A stretch of DNA of 64,000 bases from a virus (lineage: Duplodnaviria; Heunggongvirae; Uroviricota; Caudoviricetes). Where the stretch lies: positions 9,557 through 73,556 of IMG/VR virus record IMGVR_UViG_2579778873_000001; one strand, 5' to 3'. Position numbers and translations under genes: made by a program. Under the pieces are notes generated by a model. It did not search any database. It was not told where the DNA came from and worked only from the letters and a program-made list of their open reading frames with translations. Within the stretch, counting starts at the first letter, position 1, and every line of letters begins with the position of its first letter. This document shows positions 3,631-54,952 of this stretch, in pieces.

Positions 3631-4371
3631 TTACAAACCGCGTTTTTTGCGAATGCGCATTGATTTTTTGCGGTTGATATTCGCTACGGATGTATGCGCT
3701 TTGCGGCGTGCTTTTTTCAGCGCCTGTTTTTGCAATGACGTCATGCGGCGAGGACGCGGGCGTTTACGGATGATGGTAACCTTGCCATCACGAACCACTT
3801 TTTTACGTACCGCTTCCAGCATTGCGCTATCACCACCAGCAACGGTGTAAATGGCAATAGCTGTTTCCATCATGTCGGTGTCGCTTTCGGAAAGAGCGTC
3901 AAAAACACGTTCGGCAGCTGAGTCATCTTCATCGTCGATCATTTCGGTTACATCGTCCTGATCAGCGCCAAGCGCAACAGCTGCATCAGCAAGAGCTGCG
4001 AGAGCATCGTTATAAGCATCGATTTGTTCATCGGTGAAATCGGTGCCTTCATCGATATCAGCCAGGCCAGCCATAGTGATTGCTAATGCATCAAATGAGT
4101 CAGCCTCCGGATCACCATCTTCAACCCAACCAGCAAGCATGGACGCTGCCAGGCTGCGCATATCACCTTGTGCACGGGATTCAACCGCTTCCATCATCGC
4201 GGTTTCAATGTCGTCTTTGGGCTTTGGTTGAGTGTCCTTTCCTTTCTGTCCTGCGCTTTCCAGCATGGCGTTATCATTATTGTCCTGAGTGGATTTATCA
4301 CCGCTTTCAAAGCAGCCAGAACCGAAAATCGCACGCATAAAAGGATCAGCAGTATAATTTTTCATATTCAA
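3631..4371 (-). CDS. Acidic protein with strongly basic C-terminal tail; scaffold or internal virion protein candidate
   Basis: 246 aa; D/E-rich body followed by an Arg/Lys-rich tail (RKRPRPRR...RIRKKRGL); composition typical of scaffolding or DNA-associated internal proteins. Confidence 0.45.
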   Translation of the reverse strand: MNMKNYTADPFMRAIFGSGCFESGDKSTQDNNDNAMLESAGQKGKDTQPKPKDDIETAMMEAVESRAQGDMRSLAASMLAGWVEDGDPEADSFDALAITMAGLADIDEGTDFTDEQIDAYNDALAALADAAVALGADQDDVTEMIDDEDDSAAERVFDALSESDTDMMETAIAIYTVAGGDSAMLEAVRKKVVRDGKVTIIRKRPRPRRMTSLQKQALKKARRKAHTSVANINRKKSMRIRKKRGL

Positions 4372-4408
4372 ACCTCTCTCCCCCGCATCATTTAGCGGGG
4401 GTTATAAA

Positions 4409-6067
4409 TCAGCGCATCAGAATTGGCTTACCGACGATTCGGCGAGCTGTACCGGTCGGACAAACAGACCAGGCCACTTCCCACAGATCGATGTCCTTTT
4501 GGGCAACCTGAACAACATATGGATCTTCACCCTGGGACTTGTCACGTGGAGTAACCAGCGCACCGGCTGCAACGTAACGGTCAAGCAATTCAGTCATTGC
4601 TTTCATTAGCGCTTCTTTGGTAATGCCATCCGGTTCGTGCTTAATCGCCTGAGCTACTTCATAGAAATCTCTGGCGATGGCGTTCATCAAGGAAGACACA
4701 TGCTGGAATCGCAGATAGTTGTTTTTGCTGTAAGTTGTTAAAGAGTCGTCAATGTAAACGGACCCGTCAGCAGCAACTGAAACTGGATTAATGCGCGCAA
4801 GAACGAACGCTTCACGATCAACTGCACCGATATTTGGAATTCGGGCAATGTTCTGTCGATCAATAATCGCGCGTGATATACCTGCCGGTGCGTAATGCCA
4901 ACCACCAACATCCGGTACCAGCGCCACTCCTTTTGCCTTCGCTACGAATGCGTCGCAGCTAATGCCATAGACGACATTCATTCCAGTGAAAGTATCTCGG
5001 CAGGAGAGCGGGAAGTAGTAACGGCTTGGTTGATGTGAGCCGCCAAAATTATGGCTTTTCGCTTCTGAAATAGCGTTTTCAGGTGTCTGGTTGCCCTTCA
5101 GGTCATAGAACATGTCTACGCGAACATCTTCAGCCAGCTTTTTGATTGCGGCTAAGGCGGATGCGTCATAACAACCCAATGACAGCAATGCGGTGTAATT
5201 AACCTCTGAAGCTTCGAGAACCTTTAATGCTTCCAGATAGTCTGCAGCGCCAATTTCGGACAGATTTCCATCAGTACCACCTTCAAAAGCTACATCCTCA
5301 AAAATGAGTTGAGCAGCGGATGCTTCTGCATTATCTGCCAGTACGGCACCAATGCGAGTGGACTGGCTTTCAAGCAGTGTCGGAATCCATGCTGGTTGGC
5401 CCATGTCGTTAGTGCCTTCTGGATTGAAAGACACCTGGTGGCTTTCCAGCACCTCAATGGACCCATCGGTTTGTTTTTCTTTCAGCGTCAGCGTAAAGAG
5501 TTCGCTTTCTTCATCATCGCGAGTTAGTGATAACGTGCGATTTTGAGATGCATCACCATCTTTGATGAAGAATAATGCCTTCTCTTCACCTTTAATCTGG
5601 GGCGTCTCTTTGGGTGTGAAGGTCACTGATTGAGTCGTTGCAGTTGAAGCAACACCAACGCTTAATGTGACACCTGGATTTACTGTGGTTTCAGTTGGTT
5701 CAACGGAAAGTTCTTTACTCGCCTTTGCCGCTTTTACTTTGCCCACAACGGAAACAGAAATACCCGGCACCTTCATGTCTTTAGCGCAAACTCGAACGAC
5801 ATATCCAGAGCCGCCTTTTACTGCACGCTCCACGTGGCGATATGGTTCAAAAGCCGCGCCCAGGCGAGGGTGAATCGGTGAACCTAATACGCTTTGATAA
5901 GTCGTATCGTCAACTTTCAGTACCTTACCCGGTGCGCCACGACGCGATATTACAAGCCCAGCAAAGACGGATGCGCCACCGCTGGTATTGGTGAGGTTAG
6001 CGTCAGCATTTACTGACATTACAGCAACGCCAGCTGCCTGCCCTACCGAAAAACTAATCTTATTCAT
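4409..6067 (-). CDS. Major virion structural protein (tail sheath candidate)
   Basis: 552-aa ORF in the late operon; size and position next to the head gene as in P1 genes 22/23; assignment by size and synteny only. Confidence 0.45.
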   Translation of the reverse strand: MNKISFSVGQAAGVAVMSVNADANLTNTSGGASVFAGLVISRRGAPGKVLKVDDTTYQSVLGSPIHPRLGAAFEPYRHVERAVKGGSGYVVRVCAKDMKVPGISVSVVGKVKAAKASKELSVEPTETTVNPGVTLSVGVASTATTQSVTFTPKETPQIKGEEKALFFIKDGDASQNRTLSLTRDDEESELFTLTLKEKQTDGSIEVLESHQVSFNPEGTNDMGQPAWIPTLLESQSTRIGAVLADNAEASAAQLIFEDVAFEGGTDGNLSEIGAADYLEALKVLEASEVNYTALLSLGCYDASALAAIKKLAEDVRVDMFYDLKGNQTPENAISEAKSHNFGGSHQPSRYYFPLSCRDTFTGMNVVYGISCDAFVAKAKGVALVPDVGGWHYAPAGISRAIIDRQNIARIPNIGAVDREAFVLARINPVSVAADGSVYIDDSLTTYSKNNYLRFQHVSSLMNAIARDFYEVAQAIKHEPDGITKEALMKAMTELLDRYVAAGALVTPRDKSQGEDPYVVQVAQKDIDLWEVAWSVCPTGTARRIVGKPILMR

Positions 6068-9284: not shown

Positions 9285-9583
9285 TCCCCCTTCCCTTCCC
9301 AAATCTCCCTGTTTTTTTGGTTATTCAGTGCGTTTCGTTGGTTGCATTCGTCGATCGTGCTGAATAACTGTTCAGCGTATGTCGGATACTTGTTTAACAG
9401 CACTGGCGTGTCTTCTGGCACTAAACAAGGGGAGTAGTCAATCAGATTTGCCTGCGGCCTGCTGGTGGCTTCTACGGTAATTTTCACTGGCACGCTGGTT
9501 GATGGCTTTTGCCCGTTCCCGCTGCATCCTGATAACGTCATCAGGCACACGTACATCGTTAATCCCAGCACGGCGTAACGCAT
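9272..9583 (-). CDS. o-spanin (Rz1-like outer-membrane lipoprotein)
   Basis: Lipobox LSGC after a hydrophobic signal (internal Met MRYAVLG...); starts inside the i-spanin gene in another frame and extends past it (overlapped architecture); periplasmic Cys residues. Confidence 0.55.
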   Translation of the reverse strand: MRYAVLGLTMYVCLMTLSGCSGNGQKPSTSVPVKITVEATSRPQANLIDYSPCLVPEDTPVLLNKYPTYAEQLFSTIDECNQRNALNNQKNREIWEGKGDQGS

Positions 9584-11119: not shown

Positions 11120-11300
11120 AAATTTCGGAATATTTCTGTATTCTCACTTCATTCTCAAATAAATCTCACTGTCAGACCATAATTCATTGGGTGATTAAGG
11201 TATTCTCAAAATGAACTCAATAATCACTCTTTTTTTATCTCTTTTGGTGTGGATTTTTGGGGGCTTCTCTTTTAAAATTGCATTATGATTCTCAAATGTG
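11120..11300. promoter_or_regulatory. parC-like centromere/promoter repeats upstream of parM
   Basis: Repeated ATTCTCA(A/C) units (about 11133, 11143, 11200, 11284) in an AT-rich leader. Confidence 0.5.
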
Positions 11301-11321
11301 TCTCAGAAGTGGAGCAAGAAG

Positions 11322-12278
11322 ATGCGCATTTTTATCGATGATGGTTCAACCAATATCAAAATGCTGTGGGAGCACGACGGGGAAACTCGCACTCACATCA
11401 GCCCTAACAGCTTTAAGCGCGGATGGTCAGCAACATTTGGTGCGGGCAAGCCGTTTAACTATGTCATTGACGACGAAAAGTATTCGTATGATTTGATCTC
11501 GCCAGATGTTCTGCCGACGAATAACGTGGAATGGCAATACAGCCCGCTTAACGTCCTGGCTGTTCACCATGCCCTGCTGACAAGTGGCATTGAGCCGCAG
11601 GAAGTAGAAATTGTGGTCACGCTGCCTCTGGCGGAGTTTTACGACGACGACGCGCAATACAATCTCGATAACATCGAGCGCAAGAAAGCCAGTCTTATGC
11701 GCCCCGTCACGCTGAATAAAGGCAATGTGTTCACGATTAAGAAAGTTACGGTACGACCGGAGTCTATTCCGGCAGGAATTGGCCTGTGCGACAATCTGAA
11801 CCCTGCCCATTCTGTTCTTATCGTCGATTTGGGTGGAACTACCCTTGATGTTTCAATGGTCGCCGGGCAAATGACGGCAGTTTCCCGTGTTTTTGGCGAT
11901 TCGAATCTTGGTGTATCACTGGTCACCAGGGAAGTAAGGCAAGCACTTGCAAGGGCCAATACCGAAACGTCAAATTACAATGTCGATCAGCTCATTATTA
12001 ACCGCCACGATGAAGATTATCTGAACGACAATATCAATGACCCATCAGCGATTGGTGATGTGAAAAAGGCCATTGCCGCAAGCATTGACCGTCTGCGTAC
12101 CCGCGTTCTTGATGTGATTGGCGACTTTAAAGGATATACGCATGTCATGGTGATCGGTGGTGGCGCACCGCTGGTGGCAGATGCAATTCGCGAGCAAGTT
12201 AATATTCGTGATGACCGTTTCTTCGTGGCGGATGACCCGCAACTTGCTCTTGTTCATGGCCTGAAAGCAATCGGTTAA
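11322..12278 (+). CDS. parM: Actin-like plasmid segregation ATPase ParM (StbA)
   Basis: Clear similarity to R1 ParM along its length (MRIFIDDGSTNIK..., HISPNSFKR, NVLAVHHALLTSG, DLGGTTLD, YTHVMVIGGGA); start set at Met 11322 with GGAG 9 nt upstream. Confidence 0.85.
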   Translation: MRIFIDDGSTNIKMLWEHDGETRTHISPNSFKRGWSATFGAGKPFNYVIDDEKYSYDLISPDVLPTNNVEWQYSPLNVLAVHHALLTSGIEPQEVEIVVTLPLAEFYDDDAQYNLDNIERKKASLMRPVTLNKGNVFTIKKVTVRPESIPAGIGLCDNLNPAHSVLIVDLGGTTLDVSMVAGQMTAVSRVFGDSNLGVSLVTREVRQALARANTETSNYNVDQLIINRHDEDYLNDNINDPSAIGDVKKAIAASIDRLRTRVLDVIGDFKGYTHVMVIGGGAPLVADAIREQVNIRDDRFFVADDPQLALVHGLKAIG

Positions 12279-12285
12279 CGAGGTA

Positions 12286-12630
12286 ATGTCCATGTCTCAG
12301 GAACGTAAGAAAGTGATGATTTATCTTCGCCCAGAGGCTTATGCCAATGAAAAGGCGGCGAGCGAGAAGATAAAAAAACATAGCGATATGGCAAGAACCG
12401 CATTGTTGGCAGGGCTTGCGCTGGGAGAAGTCGATAGCAGGCTTCCAGGATTACTGGCTTCCCTGCTGACCGAAGATAATAATCCGGAGCTGATCCGAAA
12501 AATGCTGGCATCCTTCCTGGAACTACCAGCTGCGGTTGAGGAGCGCCCTGCCTCCATTGAGCCAGTGAAGGAGCAAGTTGTTGCCAAAAGCGCGTCGGCG
12601 CGCAATCTGGCTGACTCTCTACCTGATTGA
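12286..12630 (+). CDS. parR: ParR-like centromere-binding adaptor
   Basis: Small ORF immediately downstream of parM; size, position and a conserved LTAGLALG-like segment match ParR. Confidence 0.6.
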   Translation: MSMSQERKKVMIYLRPEAYANEKAASEKIKKHSDMARTALLAGLALGEVDSRLPGLLASLLTEDNNPELIRKMLASFLELPAAVEERPASIEPVKEQVVAKSASARNLADSLPD

Positions 12631-12917: not shown

Positions 12918-13559
12918 ATGATTATATTGGTAGTCAGCCAAAAAGGTGGCTGTGGAAAATCAACCACAAGCGTAAACATCTGTGCGGAGCTTGCCCGCGA
13001 AAATAAGGATGTAGTGTTACTAGATGCAGACAAGCAAGGAACAGCTGCCCGCTGGGCCGCTGACCGTAACACGGCAGAGGTTTCTCCTGTAATTCATTGT
13101 GTCCAGAAGTTTGGTAATATTCGAGAAACACTTCTCGATCTGGATAAGCGTTATGAATTTGTAGTTGTTGATACAGCCGGGCGCGATAGCAAAGAGATGC
13201 GTACAGGCATAACCGCTGCAGATATTGTGTTGGTCCCATTCAGACCATCTCAACCAGATTTAGACACGCTGGCACACTTTGTTGAAGTGTTTGAAGAGGC
13301 TTTGGACCTGATGCCTAATCCTAGCATTAAGGCGTTCGCAGTCTTAACAATGGCCCCATCCAATCCGGTTGTGAATGAAACCAATGAGGCCAAAGAGTAC
13401 CTGGCTGAATATCCGCAACTGAAGTTGCTGAAAACCATCATTCGTGATCGTAAGGTTTACCGCGATTGCATGGCTGAAGGGAAGGGCGTTGTTGAGATGG
13501 ACAACGGGAAAGCTAAAGGTGAAATCCAGATGTTGGTTAAGGAGTTATTAAGTGATTAA
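12918..13559 (+). CDS. parA: Small ParA-type (type Ib) partition ATPase
   Basis: Deviant Walker A KGGCGKST at the N-terminus; 213 aa, the size class of pB171/TP228-type ParA. Confidence 0.85.
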   Translation: MIILVVSQKGGCGKSTTSVNICAELARENKDVVLLDADKQGTAARWAADRNTAEVSPVIHCVQKFGNIRETLLDLDKRYEFVVVDTAGRDSKEMRTGITAADIVLVPFRPSQPDLDTLAHFVEVFEEALDLMPNPSIKAFAVLTMAPSNPVVNETNEAKEYLAEYPQLKLLKTIIRDRKVYRDCMAEGKGVVEMDNGKAKGEIQMLVKELLSD

Positions 13560-13839
13560 ACCTCGTAAATCGGTAAAAGCCCCCGAAGTAAAAGACCCCG
13601 ATCTTGAACGCCGAATTGAGGATTTTGCAAGTAAGGCTGATTTGGTGCCGGGTGAGCAACCAGAAGACAACAAAGTGCTCGATAAGGACGCTCCACGTGA
13701 TTTTAAATCTATTCGTGTTGGTTTCAATGAATACGAGTACCAGGTACTTGATGCGTTAAGTAAAAAGCATAATCGCAGCAAATTGAATATGATCCGCCAT
13801 GCTATCCTCATGTTAGCGGAGTCTGAGGAAGCAAAATAA
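13552..13839 (+). CDS. Small centromere-binding partner of ParA (ParG/ParB-like)
   Basis: 95-aa ORF overlapping the parA stop by 8 nt; basic N-terminus; partner role inferred from position. Confidence 0.5.
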   Translation: MIKPRKSVKAPEVKDPDLERRIEDFASKADLVPGEQPEDNKVLDKDAPRDFKSIRVGFNEYEYQVLDALSKKHNRSKLNMIRHAILMLAESEEAK

Positions 13840-13960
13840 AGTCTTTCAGGGTGGTTTTAGAACTTAAAAAATCTTGAACCAAAGATGCACCAATACACCA
13901 CTAATTTGGTGCACCTTTACATCCTTTTTGGTTCCAATTGTGTACCATTTGTCATTAATT
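13840..13960. promoter_or_regulatory. Downstream repeat block (second centromere-like site)
   Basis: Same unit family as upstream (cttgaaccaaag, ttggttccaattg) plus an imperfect palindrome tgcaccaa...ttggtgca. Confidence 0.4.
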
Positions 13961-14107
13961 TACTTATGCGCAAAAGTGGGCTTCATGAAAAAGCTCATTA
14001 TTGAAATAACGATAGAAAGCAATTTCTAATCAACTAGTGGTTGTCAGCCTATTCGGCTTATAAGATCATACGCTGTTATACGTTTTTTACGCTTTGAGGA
14101 ATCCACA

Positions 14108-15769
14108 ATGAGTGAGGCAGAAGCCCGCCCGACTAACTTTATTCGTCAGATCATCGATGAAGATCTGGCAAGTGGTAAGCACACCACAGTACATACCCGT
14201 TTCCCGCCGGAACCGAATGGCTATCTGCATATTGGTCATGCGAAATCTATCTGCCTGAACTTCGGGATCGCCCAGGACTATAAAGGCCAGTGCAACCTGC
14301 GTTTCGACGACACTAACCCGGTAAAAGAAGATATCGAGTACGTCGAGTCGATTAAAAACGACGTTGAATGGTTAGGTTTTCACTGGTCTGGTAACGTCCG
14401 TTACTCCTCCGATTATTTTGATCAGCTCCACGCCTATGCTGTTGAACTGATCAACAAAGGCCTGGCGTATGTTGACGAACTGACGCCGGAACAGATCCGC
14501 GAATACCGCGGCACCCTGACGCAGCCGGGTAAAAACAGCCCGTACCGCGATCGCAGCGTTGAAGAGAACCTGGCGCTGTTCGAAAAAATGCGTGCCGGTG
14601 GTTTTGAAGAAGGTAAAGCCTGCCTGCGTGCGAAAATCGACATGGCGTCGCCGTTTATCGTGATGCGCGATCCGGTGCTGTACCGCATTAAGTTTGCTGA
14701 ACACCACCAGACTGGCAACAAGTGGTGCATCTACCCGATGTACGACTTCACCCACTGCATCAGCGATGCGCTGGAAGGTATTACGCACTCTCTGTGTACG
14801 CTTGAGTTCCAGGACAACCGTCGCCTGTACGACTGGGTGCTGGACAACATCACCATTCCTGTTCACCCGCGCCAGTACGAATTCTCGCGCCTGAATCTGG
14901 AATACACTGTGATGTCCAAGCGTAAGCTGAACCTGCTGGTGACCGACAAGCACGTTGAAGGCTGGGATGACCCGCGTATGCCGACCATTTCCGGTCTGCG
15001 TCGTCGTGGTTACACTGCGGCTTCTATTCGTGAGTTCTGCAAACGCATCGGCGTGACCAAGCAGGACAACACCATTGAGATGGCGTCGCTGGAATCCTGC
15101 ATCCGTGAAGATCTCAACGAAAATGCGCCGCGCGCAATGGCGGTTATCGATCCGGTGAAACTGGTTATCGAAAACTACCAGGGCGAAGGCGAAATGGTCA
15201 CCATGCCGAACCATCCGAACAAACCGGAAATGGGTAGCCGTCAGGTGCCGTTTAGCGGTGAGATTTGGATCGACCGCGCCGATTTCCGCGAAGAAGCTAA
15301 CAAGCAGTACAAACGTCTGGTGCTGGGTAAAGAAGTGCGTCTGCGTAATGCTTACGTCATTAAGGCTGAACGCGTGGAGAAAGATGCCGAAGGCAATATC
15401 ACCACCATCTTCTGTACCTACGATGCCGATACTTTAAGCAAAGATCCGGCAGATGGTCGTAAAGTGAAAGGCGTTATCCACTGGGTAAGCGCGGCCCATG
15501 CGCTGCCGGTTGAAATTCGCCTGTACGACCGTCTGTTCAGTGTACCGAACCCAGGTGCTGCGGATGATTTTCTGTCGGTGATTAACCCGGAATCGCTGGT
15601 GATCAAACAGGGCTTTGCTGAACCGTCGCTGAAAGAAGCGGTAGCTGGTAAAGCATTCCAGTTTGAGCGTGAAGGTTATTTCTGCCTCGACAGCCGCCAT
15701 TCTACGGCGGAAAAACCGGTATTTAACCGCACCGTTGGGCTGCGTGATACCTGGGCGAAGTTAGGTTAA
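14108..15769 (+). CDS. glnS: Glutaminyl-tRNA synthetase
   Basis: 553-aa ORF matching E. coli GlnS essentially end to end as recalled (HIGH motif region [17 protein letters not shown] motif); own leader and terminator. Confidence 0.95.
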
Positions 15770-15794
15770 TAGGTATTTCGCCACATAAAAAAGT

Positions 15795-15820
15795 AAACGC
15801 CGCTACTGCGGCGTTTTTTA
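15795..15820 (+). terminator. Rho-independent terminator of glnS
   Basis: GC hairpin aaacgccgc-tact-gcggcgttt followed by a T-run; the dmt stop codon on the other strand overlaps the T-tract. Confidence 0.7.
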
Positions 15821-18112
15821 CTTCATTATTGCAATTATATCGTTAGCAACTACACGTGTTGACGCCTTGCAGGAAACCGACCGTCTGGCTGCCATATGAT
15901 GTACTTTAAACCCGTTTCCTTCATATAGTTCACGGATGTTTGGCGCACCACTATTTGTAATCACTACCTTAGCGCCGCGCTGGTGGGCTTCCACCAATAG
16001 AGATACCAGCCGTTTCTGTTCGTCGAAACGGAAGCTATTTCCTGAATAACTGGTAAACCCTTCTGTATCCGGCAGCGGTTCATACGGCGGATCGCAAAAA
16101 ATCACATCGCCTTCACCAGCCGCCTCGATGACGCCAGCAAAGTCACCTGATACAAAGGACGTGTTTTTGAGTACGTCATCAGCCAAAAATGCCTCCATCT
16201 CTGCATGTGGGAAGTAGGGCGCTTTGTATTTGCCATACCCCACGTTGAACTCGCCATTTTGGTTGTACCGCGTTACGCCATTAAAACAGTGCCGATTAAG
16301 GTACAAAAAGGCGGCAGCATGATGTAGCTGGTCATACTTTCCTCTGTTAAATGCCTCACGCACTTCGAGGTAAGCGTCAGCGTTGTTGTAATTTTGGAAA
16401 AAACTATATGACAGCGTGACGAGCGAATGTCCTTCTCGCTGCAATGTCTGATAGAAGTTAATCAGGTCACCGTTAATATCATTAAGCAGGTTGTGGCGAA
16501 ATCCTGCATTCGTAAATACGGAACCGCCACCAACGAATGGTTCTATTAACCGCTTGCCGTGTGGTAGATGCTCAAGCACTGTAGGTAACTCTGAGAATTT
16601 ACCTCCTACCCATTTGAAGATCGGACGCTCATATTCATCCGGAGTCCGGAGTATTCTTGTGTAGGTAATGGTATTTATTGTTTTTGGCTGTTTAGCTTCC
16701 ACAGTCGCAAGAATGCAACACCCAATCCATTGCATAACAGGAACTGCCATGCTGTTGCCAATCGCTTTGTAACGCGGCCCGTCAGCAGCGAGCATCGCGG
16801 CCTCTTCTTCGCTTAAATCTGGATAGTGATTGCGAAGGTATGCCAGTTCATCTGAGGAAATTGTTTTACGCTTTTCCGTAGGGATCAACGTATGCCCATC
16901 AGGAAAACCTTGCAGCCTTTCACATTCGACAGGGGTAAGACGGCGAACAGCTACTTTTGCGTTTCTTGCTTCATAGCAAACGGCTGTTGGATTTTGAGCC
17001 ATTAGAGATGGTGAAGTATTCTTAGTTGCAGCATGTTGTGTACCGCTCATATGCTCAGGAAAAGCTAATGTAACAAGATGCTCATGGCTTTCTTGCTCAC
17101 GCGCCCGCAATGTACCATGCCCCTCTGACCAAAAACCTGCTCCTGTGCTGCTAAAAACGGCAAGGTCAGTGGCATCTTTAAAGTCTCTTGCCTTTACTGT
17201 CGATGCGGTTTCATCGTCAATATATTCCCCAAATGCCGCCATCCTGAAAGCGTTTACGGCTTTCGTCGATTTCATACCGGGGGGCATGTCAGCGTGTAGG
17301 CATGGATTTAGACTTTCGCCACTGATTGCAGCGCCATTTGCAATAATGGCGGAAGCGATTTCCTTCTTTTTTCGGCTCGGCGCAATATTCCGGCGCACGC
17401 CTTCGAACTCAAAAAGTATCGTTGCGGGATCGAGGTCTGTTCGAGCACTTGCGACAACAAACACGCGTCGGCGTCGTTGTGCCACTCCGAAGTATTGGGC
17501 ATCAAGGATTCTCCAGGCCACTTTTCGCTGCGGTCCATAAATACAACCACACTGCGGCCACTTTGGAGCATGGCAACTGGTTTTGACATCCCACCGCCAG
17601 AACGCGTTACTTTTTCGTGATTCAGGTCGAGCACCTGGTTCGAATGGCGCATCTTCTCCAGCCAATCCGGCAAGGAAACATCCGAAGGCGTTATCTGCCG
17701 ATGACAAGACTCCTGGGACATTTTCCCAGACGATAACGGCTGGTTTGAGAAATGACTCAGCCCGTTTGTCGTCAATTGCATTTGCAAGCTCCACATACTT
17801 TAAAGTTAGCGCGCCACGCTCATCATCAAGCCCACCACGTAATCCCGCGATACTGAATGCCTGACAAGGTGTTCCCCCGACGAGCACATCAGGGGATTCG
17901 ATTTCCCCAGCCAGGACTTTTTTGGCAAGTTTTGTCATATCGCCAAGGTTGGCGACATGGGGCCAGCGGTGCGCAAGAACGGCAGATGGAAAAGGCTCGA
18001 TTTCAGCAAACCACGCCGGACGCATACCCAACGGTTCCCAGGCAATGCTCGCTGCTTCAATTCCACTGCAAACAGAACCATATCTAAGGTTAACGTTCTG
18101 CTTCACCACCAA
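15818..18112 (-). CDS. dmt: Bifunctional DNA methyltransferase (N-terminal C5-cytosine, C-terminal Dam-like N6-adenine), Dmt-like
   Basis: C5-MTase motifs ([24 protein letters not shown]) in the N-terminal half; Dam-like FKWVGGK and DPPY in the C-terminal half; no restriction endonuclease gene nearby. Confidence 0.8.
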
Positions 18113-52707: not shown

Positions 52708-52783
52708 TGGTGGCCCCTACCGGACTTGAACCGGTGACCGTGCGATTATGAGTCGCCAGCTCTAACCACTGAGCTAAAGGGCC
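52708..52783 (-). tRNA. tRNA with CAU anticodon (ileX-like tRNA-Ile2, or Met)
   Basis: 76-nt cloverleaf read by hand: acceptor GGCCCTT/AGGGGCC, anticodon loop CTCATAA, T-loop TTCAAGT, encoded CCA; close to E. coli ileX as recalled. Confidence 0.8.
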
Positions 52784-52937
52784 AGATTACTGTTAATTCC
52801 GCTTACGCTTTTTGCCAGGACCGCGTAAGGCTTTTGCTGCTTGCTCGACCCCATATGCAACCACCAGCAGAAATAAAAATGTCCACCAAGGGTTCTTGTC
52901 GGCAAACGTCCAAAATTCCATCATGTTCTCTATTTGG

Positions 52938-53765
52938 TTATTTCACCGGAACAAACGGAACAGCGGTATTACTGGTCATATACTGCGGTAGCGTTCCGTT
53001 CCATTTGTTGATCGCTTCCAACTCCATAACGCCGGGGTTCTGGCGCAGAGCCTCACCGCGTAAACGAATGGCATCAGCTTCAGCCTGGGCTTTTGTGCGA
53101 ATGGCATCGGCCTGTCCGGCAGCTTCTGCGCGCAGCATGTTGGCTTCTGCTTCGCGTTGCTTGACTTCCTGCTCGCGTTGCAGAGTTTTCTGGTTCGCCG
53201 TGACTTTGGCATTAATGCTGTCGATAACGGTTGGCGGGTACTCCGGCTTGCCCACATATGAGAGGCTCATTACCTGAATACCGATGGGCGTCATTTCTTC
53301 CTGGATGTCTTTAAGAGCTGCATCCAGCAGTTCAGACTTGCCACCGTCGATAAATTTGTCGGTGGTCATTTTGCTGGCCAGTCGGTTAAGTGCGTCGGCA
53401 ATCTTCTGGCGCAGGTCGGTGTCGGTAATGTCATCCACGCCTTTGCGGTAGGTCTGAAATACAGTTGTGACTTTTGCCGGATCAACCTTGTAAGCTACAC
53501 CAATGTGGTAACCAATTGTTGTCCCGTCGCTCATTTGGAAGCTGAACGGATCATCATAGGTCTTCATTTGCTTAAAGGTCGGGAAGATATAAACTTCTGT
53601 GTTCCAGCCTGTCCAGTAGCGACCAACGCCAACTACTTCGCCGACACCTTTATCATCCCCCAGCTTATTTACTTTGATCCCTACATTGCCTGGTTCTACC
53701 CGGTCGCATCCGGTCAGACATAAAGAACCAAAAATAATCGCTGCACTAATCAACGTTTTTTTCAT
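52938..53765 (-). CDS. SPFH/band-7 family lipoprotein (Plp-like)
   Basis: Lipobox LTGC after a signal peptide; C-terminal Ala/Glu/Arg-rich coiled-coil typical of SPFH proteins. Confidence 0.6.
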   Translation of the reverse strand: MKKTLISAAIIFGSLCLTGCDRVEPGNVGIKVNKLGDDKGVGEVVGVGRYWTGWNTEVYIFPTFKQMKTYDDPFSFQMSDGTTIGYHIGVAYKVDPAKVTTVFQTYRKGVDDITDTDLRQKIADALNRLASKMTTDKFIDGGKSELLDAALKDIQEEMTPIGIQVMSLSYVGKPEYPPTVIDSINAKVTANQKTLQREQEVKQREAEANMLRAEAAGQADAIRTKAQAEADAIRLRGEALRQNPGVMELEAINKWNGTLPQYMTSNTAVPFVPVK

Positions 53766-53983
53766 TAATCAATTTCCTGGATTTTTTTGCGAAAAAAGAC
53801 TACTGCAAAAGCCGGGTAAATGAGCGCGAGAAGGACTCCCAACAATACAAGTATTGTGCTGTCAGATGAGATCATATTTGGCAAAAGCCAAACATACAGA
53901 ACCAGTGACACAATCAAACAGAGGACGACATAAATATATAGCCGCACCCATAGCGTTCGACATTTGTTCGGATTGTTCTGCAT
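53765..53983 (-). CDS. Small integral membrane protein (Upl-like)
   Basis: 72 aa with two hydrophobic helices; coupled to the lipoprotein gene. Confidence 0.45.
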   Translation of the reverse strand: MQNNPNKCRTLWVRLYIYVVLCLIVSLVLYVWLLPNMISSDSTILVLLGVLLALIYPAFAVVFFRKKIQEID

Positions 53984-54246
53984 CCTCTCACTCCATTATT
54001 TAACGAATAAAAAAGCTGCGGTGCCTGGTGCCTCCAGGTGACGTTAACCAGTTAACAATTAACGCCGGGATGTTTGATTTAACCACTAATAAGGATTGTT
54101 TTAACTGTTCCGCGTGCGCTTAGCCGCATTCACCGCAATGGTAAGAGCACTTGGCTGGCTGGGCGGCGATGACGCCTGTACGCATTTGGTGATCCGGTTC
54201 TGCTTCCGGCATTCGCTTAATTAGCCAAATACTCTTAACGTTGCGC

Positions 54247-54332
54247 TGGCGGAGAGTAATGGAATCGAACCATCATCGCTTGCGCAATGGGACGGTTTTC
54301 AAGACCGCTTGAGCACCATGCTCCCTACTCTC
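54247..54332 (-). tRNA. tRNA-like element with Ser-type anticodon loop (UGA); non-canonical, possibly degenerate
   Basis: Acceptor GGAGAGT/ACTCTCC plus G and CCA, anticodon arm CGGT-CTTGAAA-ACCG, long variable hairpin with GCAA loop, T-loop TTCGATT; but 5-nt D-loop and A at position 8. Confidence 0.3.
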
Positions 54333-54474
54333 CGGCCGTTGTGGTGGCCGGTACTGAATCTCCGGCATACGGTGCAGCCAATTAGGACTACGGACGATCA
54401 CCGCTCGCGAAAGGGAAGATTTGCGGCCGCATTTCCCTAACATCCAAGAAAGCTATCGCATCAGTCTGCGAATC

Positions 54475-54574
54475 CACCACAACGTTGAGAACACTGGTTG
54501 TCACGCTGCCTCGCGACATTTATTCATAGATTGGGATATGATCCCGTTACGCCAATGTTCTCAACGTTGTGGTG
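54475..54574. repeat. 19-bp perfect inverted repeat flanking a 62-nt loop
   Basis: caccacaacgttgagaaca (54475-54493) and its reverse complement (54556-54574); right arm runs into a 12-nt copy of the tRNA-Thr 3' end. Confidence 0.5.
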
Positions 54575-54798
54575 CCGGTTACGGTTCCGGCCAGGCCTCT
54601 TCCTCAACGGGGTGTTCTCCATACGGACTACCGTTTATTGGTCGTTCCTGCGGTTTATGTTGTGAAGCCAGATGCTTATCTTCTGGTTGCTTCAAAGAGC
54701 TGCACTTCATCACAACGGTAAGGGTACTTCGTAGGGATTCGAACCCTCTGCCAAGCACGGCGATCTCCGACGTCGCAAAATACCCTTACCTGTTGTGT

Positions 54799-54874
54799 TG
54801 GTGCCGGTTAACGGACTCGAACCGCTGACATCCTGCTTACAAGGCAGGCGCTCTACCAACTGAGCTAAACCGGC
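54799..54874 (-). tRNA. tRNA-Thr (UGU)
   Basis: 76-nt cloverleaf: acceptor GCCGGTT/AACCGGC, anticodon loop CTTGTAA, T-loop TTCGAGT, CCA encoded. Confidence 0.85.
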
Positions 54875-54876
54875 AT

Positions 54877-54952
54877 TGGCGATGGTGGATGGATTTGAAC
54901 CATCGACCCGTTGATTAACAGTCAACCGCTCTAACCGCTGAGCTACACCATC
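54877..54952 (-). tRNA. tRNA-Asn (GUU)
   Basis: 76-nt cloverleaf: acceptor GATGGTG/CACCATC, anticodon loop CTGTTAA, T-loop TTCAAAT, CCA encoded; 2 nt from tRNA-Thr. Confidence 0.85.

Follow-up and report, generated by a model that had tools for sequence, protein, structure and literature searches.

The orf62 of phage D6 (NC_050154 / MF356679) is annotated as 'glutaminyl-tRNA synthetase, similar to E. coli GlnS', and glnS was reported to be present in all D6-like genomes (PMC6799933), the D6 genome itself being attributed there to Gilcrease & Casjens 2018. A maintenance role has already been raised for the D6 glnS (PMC6799933), and a plasmid-maintenance role was likewise proposed for the cysS of pBT1 in Salmonella Typhimurium ST313 D23580 (PMC6333337, PMC6785131), which, like the D6 glnS, is a complete paralogue of an essential aminoacyl-tRNA synthetase gene on a large low-copy plasmid. 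However, for pBT1 the essentiality of the plasmid copy, the down-regulation of the chromosomal copy and the altered kinetics were shown by experiment, whereas the D6 glnS is known from sequence. The chromosomal E. coli glnS (b0680) lies in the order nagE-glnS-chiP, and Dam repression of its promoter is credited to Plumbridge & Soll 1987, as cited in PMC12369378; the promoter is derepressed by deletion of dam or mutation of the Dam sites, as RNA-seq has re-confirmed (PMC12369378).

The window analysed in this work, a 64,000-nt stretch of a Caudoviricetes virus (IMG/VR record IMGVR_UViG_2579778873_000001, positions 9,557 to 73,556), carries the same gene as D6 orf62 and as D6-like prophages, e.g., pYU39_89, with the same position between orf61 and dmt, the same AKLG* C-terminus, the same spacer and the same terminator, and the neighbours annotated in D6 are those found in the window. 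Since the D6 annotation and PMC6799933 record glnS family-wide, the finding as such is already known: the window glnS is a long-established, published cargo gene of D6 and its plasmid-prophage relatives, and the duplicate was already documented by the D6 genome paper and the ST213 population study. An earlier note on this DNA had called such a gene on a plasmid prophage unusual, which is true in general, but within the D6-like family the gene is published and family-wide. Based on the comparisons in this work, we propose with high confidence that the cassette is a glnS 'moron' (cargo cassette) conserved in the D6 lineage of P1-type phage-plasmids, with the history and role set out below. The features of the locus are collected in Table 1.

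Table 1. Features of the glnS cassette and its neighbours, in window coordinates
Feature	Position	Strand	Description and basis
ParM/ParR module	11298-12630		Left neighbours; ORF list and domain search
ParA-like ATPase	12918-13559	+	Left neighbour
orf61	13552-13839	+	Small left neighbour ORF, overlaps the ParA-like gene
Non-coding stretch	13840-14014		Between orf61 and the cassette
Captured glnS upstream region	14015..14107	+	Sigma-70-like promoter, short 5' UTR and Shine-Dalgarno; homology and promoter scan
-35 TTGTCA	14041-14046	+	Promoter scan; 17-nt spacer to -10
-10 GATCAT	14064-14069	+	Promoter scan
Dam site GATC inside the -10 hexamer	14064-14067	+	Sequence position
Shine-Dalgarno GAGGAA	about 14096-14101	+	Homologous to chromosomal glnS
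glnS CDS, D6-family allele	14108..15769	+	Single 553-aa ORF, glutamine--tRNA ligase; ORF list
Spacer, glnS stop to terminator	15770..15794	+	25 nt; opens with a second in-frame stop, TAG
Bidirectional intrinsic terminator, AAACGCCGC-TACT-GCGGCGTTT and T-run	15795..15819		Hairpin, folding and homology
dmt, 764 aa	15818..18112	-	C5-cytosine methyltransferase and D12 Dam-type N6-adenine methyltransferase domains fused; right neighbour, convergent; marks the right junction

The window GlnS scores 1067.6 bits against TIGR00440, the glnS equivalog model (cutoff 425.8), and the match spans all 524 model positions (1-524); PF00749, PF03950 and PF20974, i.e., the class Ic catalytic domain and both anticodon-binding domains, are all full length, and the HIGH motif at residue 41 and the VMSKR motif at residue 268 are both intact. 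Judged by these models, with the class GlnRS assigned by TIGR00440, the gene is confirmed as a complete, intact glutaminyl-tRNA synthetase gene, and the earlier note had rightly recognised a complete host-type glnS within a phage-plasmid backbone. Clustering of proteins at 90% or 50% places all Escherichia and Salmonella GlnRS in one cluster. The claim that the protein is essentially the chromosomal GlnS holds for most of its length, as 550 of the 553 residues aligned with the crystallised E. coli GlnRS 1o0b are the same (~99.5%), but not for its details: relative to the K-12 GlnS it carries three conservative substitutions, I112V, D510E and V552L, and E554 has become a stop, hence the protein is one residue shorter and ends in ..AKLG* followed by TAG where K-12 ends in ..AKVGE*. 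The similarity to K-12 stops within the last three codons of the gene, and at the DNA level the window glnS is 95.6-97.0% identical to the E. coli chromosomal genes.

No tRNA-Gln gene occurs within the 64-kb window, where the tRNA genes are those for Met, Ser, Thr and Asn only, and the idea of a phage tRNA-Gln partner for glnS was dropped for this reason. Therefore, the plasmid GlnRS, which probably retains aminoacylation of tRNA-Gln as judged from its intact domains, would charge the tRNA-Gln of the host.

The cassette also resembles the chromosomal gene outside the coding region. In alignments, the homology to chromosomal glnS starts at about 14015-14040, ~70-90 bp upstream of the ATG, and the promoter, the Shine-Dalgarno and the CDS are all homologous to it, with the same -35, the same -10, the same GATC within the -10 and the same Shine-Dalgarno as in b0680. 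The promoter would thus probably be active on the plasmid as well. The GC content of the cassette is 51.7%, compared with 46-48% in the flanks. The bounds proposed for the cassette in the earlier note, 13980-15820, are exact at the right end, but the left one lies ~35 nt to the left of the glnS-type homology. The non-coding stretch between orf61 and the cassette contains nested inverted repeats at 13875-13934.

At the 3' side, the terminator has a 9-bp stem with 6 G-C pairs (15795-15816) and a T-run ending at 15819, and the predicted folding energies are -18.9 kcal/mol on the plus strand (z = -4.4) and -19.0 kcal/mol on the minus strand. Because the T-run reaches 15819 and the dmt stop codon is at 15818-15820 (tta on the plus strand), the T-tract at 15814-15819 overlaps the dmt stop, exactly as had been noticed before, and the right end of the cassette coincides with the end of the terminator. 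A first reading placed the right junction within the last three codons and regarded the terminator as non-chromosomal; it was dropped, since the same terminator was found behind many enterobacterial glnS genes. The AAACGCCGC-loop-GCGGCGTTTTTT hairpin also follows the chromosomal glnS of Salmonella, Citrobacter, Enterobacter, Kluyvera, Atlantibacter, Pseudescherichia and others, and in the E. coli K-12 and E. ruysiae chromosomes it lies ~200 bp further downstream, past inserted REP elements. As the identical hairpin trails the chromosomal glnS in so many Enterobacteriaceae, the cassette terminator is, by this homology, the ancestral enterobacterial glnS terminator and belongs to the gene. No REP/BIME elements are found in the 25-nt spacer of the window, whereas the examined chromosomes of E. 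coli and E. ruysiae have them behind glnS. The cassette therefore appears to be a full promoter-gene-terminator unit from a donor lacking those REPs. The earlier description of a gene with its own leader and terminator is thereby borne out, with a promoter of the chromosomal type and a hairpin native to enterobacterial glnS, and so is its location between the partition genes and dmt, with the ParA-like gene and orf61 at the left and the convergent dmt at the right.

Searching related phage-plasmids for the same insertion, as the earlier note had suggested, located it in about 100 PLSDB plasmids and in all of the 17 D6-like IMG/VR contigs, where glnS always lies between orf61 and dmt. The region 13500-16300 is 98.0% identical to Escherichia phage D6 over 2.8 kb, and in the phage collection a high-identity match to it was found in two D6 records only. 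At least 80% of the region is covered in 98 PLSDB plasmids, most of them non-mobilizable replicons of ~90 kb from E. coli, Salmonella and Shigella, among which pIso00270_02 matches best (99.9%); when both flanks were joined for the search, 100 records hold the flanks apart with the gene between them and four hold the flanks adjacent. D6, eight PLSDB plasmids and the 17 IMG/VR contigs agree with the window in gene order and in the sequences at the junctions. Additionally, the 3' end, comprising ..WAKLG*, the TAG second stop and the REP-free 25-nt spacer, is identical in the window, D6, pIso00270, pS143-4, pYU39_89, ptetA and pAPEC2016, with one spacer base different in a Salmonella Blockley plasmid, and the AKLG* C-terminus together with the REP-free spacer was absent from all chromosomes examined. 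An E. fergusonii D6-like plasmid carries a 554-aa glnS allele of 95% identity at the same site and with the same right junction. The phage D6 locus itself differs from the window in allelic detail only, with a nucleotide identity of 97.2% over the CDS and a K-12-like 3' third where the window has a plasmid-private one; in the neighbouring dmt, the single 764-aa fusion ORF of the window corresponds to a pair of annotated CDSs in D6, whose N-terminal part is different.

These data bear on two explanations that the earlier note had left open, namely recent capture, taken here as capture from the present host, and a chimeric assembly, in which chromosomal glnS would have been joined to plasmid contigs. 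Some support for them could be seen in the facts that some allele segments are identical to chromosomal alleles and that glnS is a repeat shared by chromosome and plasmid, in which nine of the 17 D6-like IMG/VR contigs break off; for that repeat and those contig ends, assemblers evidently struggle at this locus. However, the phage D6 genome and about 100 complete plasmids from four genera share both junctions unchanged, and the private C-terminus and spacer are missing from every chromosome examined. Furthermore, when 5,426 complete E. coli genomes were compared through identity bands and listed rows, matches of at least 96.5% to the 5' end and 3' third blocks occurred, among the records listed, only in plasmids. 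For the 3' 540 nt of glnS, the best 60 of 5,500 records are all plasmids (at least 96.5%), with 3,809 records at 90-95%; for the 5' block (nt 73-393 of the gene), 30 records reach 99% and the chromosomes among the 60 rows sampled stay at or below 96.3%. Among the records listed from the 5,426 genomes, chromosomes thus reach at most about 96.5% identity for the 3' block and 96.3% for the 5' block. Taken as one alternative, recent capture from the present host or mis-assembly is hardly credible. A chimeric assembly is refuted, since the identical junctions recur in a phage genome, about 100 independent plasmids and 17 IMG/VR contigs; and recent capture is refuted as well, because the window gene is 3-4.4% divergent from the 5,426 E. 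coli genomes, has plasmid-private blocks, a REP-free spacer and a private C-terminus, and has a 95% E. fergusonii allele at the same site.

Evidence for an insertion moreover comes from relatives in which the site is empty. NZ_CP091837.1, one of the four flank-adjacent records, and NZ_LR890273.1, which falls just under the 80% coverage line, have the same synteny (PAAR, parM, parR, ParA-like, orf61, dmt, rdgC, baseplate) and no glnS; their orf61-dmt gap is 95-135 bp, and another hairpin, AAAAAAGCCCCGATCGGGGCTTTTT or a variant of it, adjoins the dmt stop codon. As their flanks are 84-89% identical to the window, these plasmids are sister lineages. The description of a tight insertion thus stands, with a terminator that abuts dmt and sister plasmids with an empty site. 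Phage morons are autonomous units of promoter, gene and terminator that lie inserted between phage genes. The cassette resembles such a moron in having its own predicted promoter and terminator, a GC content above that of the flanks and a host-type function, as well as in being missing at the same site in sister genomes; it differs in that morons typically provide lysogenic-conversion or defence functions whereas this one is a duplicate of an essential housekeeping enzyme.

Based on these findings, we propose the following history and role for the cassette. First, an ancestor of the D6 lineage would have taken up a 1.8-kb chromosomal fragment with the glnS promoter, CDS and terminator, from an Escherichia-type bacterium whose glnS had no trailing REP elements. 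The donor was probably outside the sampled E. coli; in the donor scan, which used one genome per species, E. ruysiae is among the loci listed, and E. coli, E. albertii, E. fergusonii and E. marmotae are not among them. The fragment would have been inserted between the ParA/orf61 partition module and dmt, with the glnS terminator replacing the hairpin that is present there in the glnS-free relatives, and the cassette would since have passed by vertical descent through the plasmids now found in E. coli, Salmonella, Shigella and E. fergusonii. In the lysogen, the gene would most likely be transcribed from its own Dam-sensitive sigma-70 promoter, and its dosage would rise when the phage replicates. 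Plasmid glnS would then provide a second, fully functional GlnRS supply charging the host tRNA-Gln, and this extra supply is the most likely mechanism; the plasmid glnS may also confer a maintenance advantage. Since the cassette is 95-97% identical to the host gene, plasmid and chromosomal glnS would also swap segments repeatedly by homologous recombination, producing mosaic alleles.

Mosaic structure was found when 17 plasmid or viral alleles were compared with seven chromosomal alleles of E. coli and with that of E. ruysiae, sites being called private relative to the seven chromosomal alleles. The 17 alleles are all distinct, and a haplotype block private to plasmids, at nt 87-369, is common to nearly all of the plasmids. 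The pAPEC2016 allele shows zero differences from the nearest chromosomal allele over the first 750 nt and, over the whole gene, differs from the window at 49 nt but from one chromosomal allele at only 15 nt. Past about nt 1100 the D6 and ptetA alleles resemble K-12, whereas the window has private variants there. Maximum chi-square breakpoints gave permutation fractions of at most 0.001 in four triplets, and neighbour-joining trees of three gene segments conflict: the plasmids branch outside E. coli plus E. ruysiae for nt 1-600, are intermixed with E. coli for nt 601-1100, and for nt 1101-1650 D6 and ptetA group with K-12 (83% bootstrap), the deep nodes of the segment trees having bootstrap values below 60%. 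The simplest reading of these patterns is that the plasmid alleles are mosaics from recurrent homologous exchange with host chromosomal glnS. In a limited literature search, no published account was found of the mosaicism of the D6-family glnS or of its purifying selection; mosaic exchange with the host gene would be a modest addition to knowledge of this family, not a new kind of system.

The reading frames of all 17 sampled alleles are intact, and pairwise dN/dS is 0.01-0.03 in plasmid-plasmid and plasmid-chromosome comparisons alike. Such values indicate that the plasmid glnS is under strong purifying selection, with a signal that is partly inherited: as chromosomal alleles or the donor supplied many of the polymorphisms, the low dN/dS says less about selection at the plasmid level. 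That every sampled frame is intact despite a redundant chromosomal gene argues that the protein is in use. A few PLSDB records (H109, H113, H120) show matches of 1661 or 1663 nt under which no CDS is listed, and these copies may be frameshifted or may reflect long-read sequencing errors. The pSa1423-160k plasmid, a match of 89.8%, was left unused, as it is riddled with frameshifts, has an ORF broken at codon 56 and is most likely a low-accuracy assembly.

Given the many past RecA-type exchanges with chromosomal glnS that the mosaic alleles display, the selected role might alternatively be that of a portable recombination target, the 1.7 kb of homology serving recombination or co-integration at chromosomal glnS with GlnRS activity being irrelevant. 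We regard this as very unlikely, as homology alone needs no intact frame, yet all 17 alleles are intact with dN/dS of 0.01-0.03. Additionally, among the rows sampled no chromosome has the 5' plasmid-type block at 99%, the level that 30 records reach, and no co-integrate was seen.

In place of an additional GlnRS supply, the plasmid glnS might have become the main or only expressed GlnRS, with the chromosomal copy silenced or decaying, so that loss of the plasmid is penalised. Such an essential-gene takeover or addiction was proposed explicitly for the D6 glnS in PMC6799933 and has a precedent in the pBT1 cysS, which is needed for growth while the chromosomal cysS is dispensable and poorly expressed (PMC6785131); the strict conservation of glnS in the D6 family and its location adjoining two partition modules are consistent with it. 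However, unlike pBT1 cysS, the plasmid GlnRS is nearly identical to the chromosomal enzyme (~99.5%), with no sequence hint of altered kinetics, and the chromosomal glnS is kept: it is found in essentially all complete E. coli, at 5,427-5,428 chromosomal places in 5,425 genomes, apart from 77-81 plasmid places, and strain GF4 has, besides a D6-like plasmid glnS, an intact chromosomal glnS of 1,665 nt that encodes the K-12-type protein. The D6-like plasmids, moreover, already have toxin-antitoxin systems (PMC6799933). We therefore consider the takeover improbable, and a version drawn by analogy, in which takeover in lysogens would be accompanied by continual gene conversion that keeps both glnS copies interchangeable, would be improbable to the same degree.

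The duplicate of an essential aminoacyl-tRNA synthetase on a widespread phage-plasmid family is a real biological puzzle, to which this work adds as new minor details the probable mosaic exchange with the host gene and the presumed REP-free ancestral 3' end. The mosaic alleles record gene flow between a phage-plasmid and an essential chromosomal locus, and exchange with the host gene could confound glnS-based typing or phylogeny. For genome assembly, glnS is a chromosome/plasmid repeat that breaks short-read assemblies, and its presence on a circular contig of ~90 kb is a marker of a D6-like prophage-plasmid and not of contamination.

Nine of the 17 D6-like viral contigs in IMG/VR (loci L108 and L115-L122) end inside glnS, as would be expected if short-read assemblies break where plasmid and chromosome share a repeat. 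Further viral contigs (IMG/VR loci L106 and L110-L114), one of them 159 kb long, carry GlnRS relatives of 48-85% amino-acid identity, and no D6-type neighbours were found around these genes; therefore, phages unrelated to D6 may also have GlnRS genes, unless the contigs are misclassified, which may equally be the case. Among the D6-like plasmids in PLSDB, three (matches H109, H113 and H120) match glnS over 1661 or 1663 nt, but no CDS is listed for the matched stretch, and these copies are possibly frameshifted pseudogenes or the product of long-read indel errors.

The Enterobacter ludwigii plasmid NZ_CP116349.1 (locus 4001-5668) carries an independent glnS of 555 aa and 87% nucleotide identity, which has its own terminator, is adjoined by two site-specific integrase genes and dinQ, and sits outside any D6 backbone. 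The Escherichia fergusonii plasmid NZ_CP099330.1 (locus 4001-5720) is instead a divergent D6-like element with a full-length glnS of 554 aa, whose product terminates in ..AKVEG*; the short spacer of this gene, GCAATACATT, is similar to the Citrobacter chromosomal spacer, and the PLSDB gene table lists no dmt CDS beside it.

Features of the window around glnS and elsewhere
Feature	Position	Strand	Description
Nested inverted repeats	13875-13934		AAAGATGCACCAA/TTGGTGCACCTTT and GAACCAAA/TTTGGTTC; immediately 3' of the ParA-like/orf61 gene pair
dmt	15818-18112	-	Single 764-aa ORF that joins a C5-cytosine methyltransferase to a Dam-type N6-adenine methyltransferase
tRNA cluster	52708-54952	-	Four genes: Met-CAT, Ser-TGA, Thr-TGT, Asn-GTT

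Upstream of glnS, the nested inverted repeats probably constitute the centromere or operator of the ParA-like/orf61 module, the second partition module here. In the relatives lacking glnS, the equivalent site is occupied by repeats that differ from these but are of a similar GGTACC/GGTTCC type. On the other side of glnS, dmt is a single fusion ORF in the window, whereas two CDSs are annotated in the D6 reference. The N-terminal half of dmt looks like an exchangeable module, because the C-terminal 304 aa are the sole part matched in many D6-like contigs. No tRNA-Gln occurs among the tRNA genes of the 64-kb window, and the four that cluster there are the same set as reported for the D6-like plasmid prophage pYU39_89 (PMC6799933).
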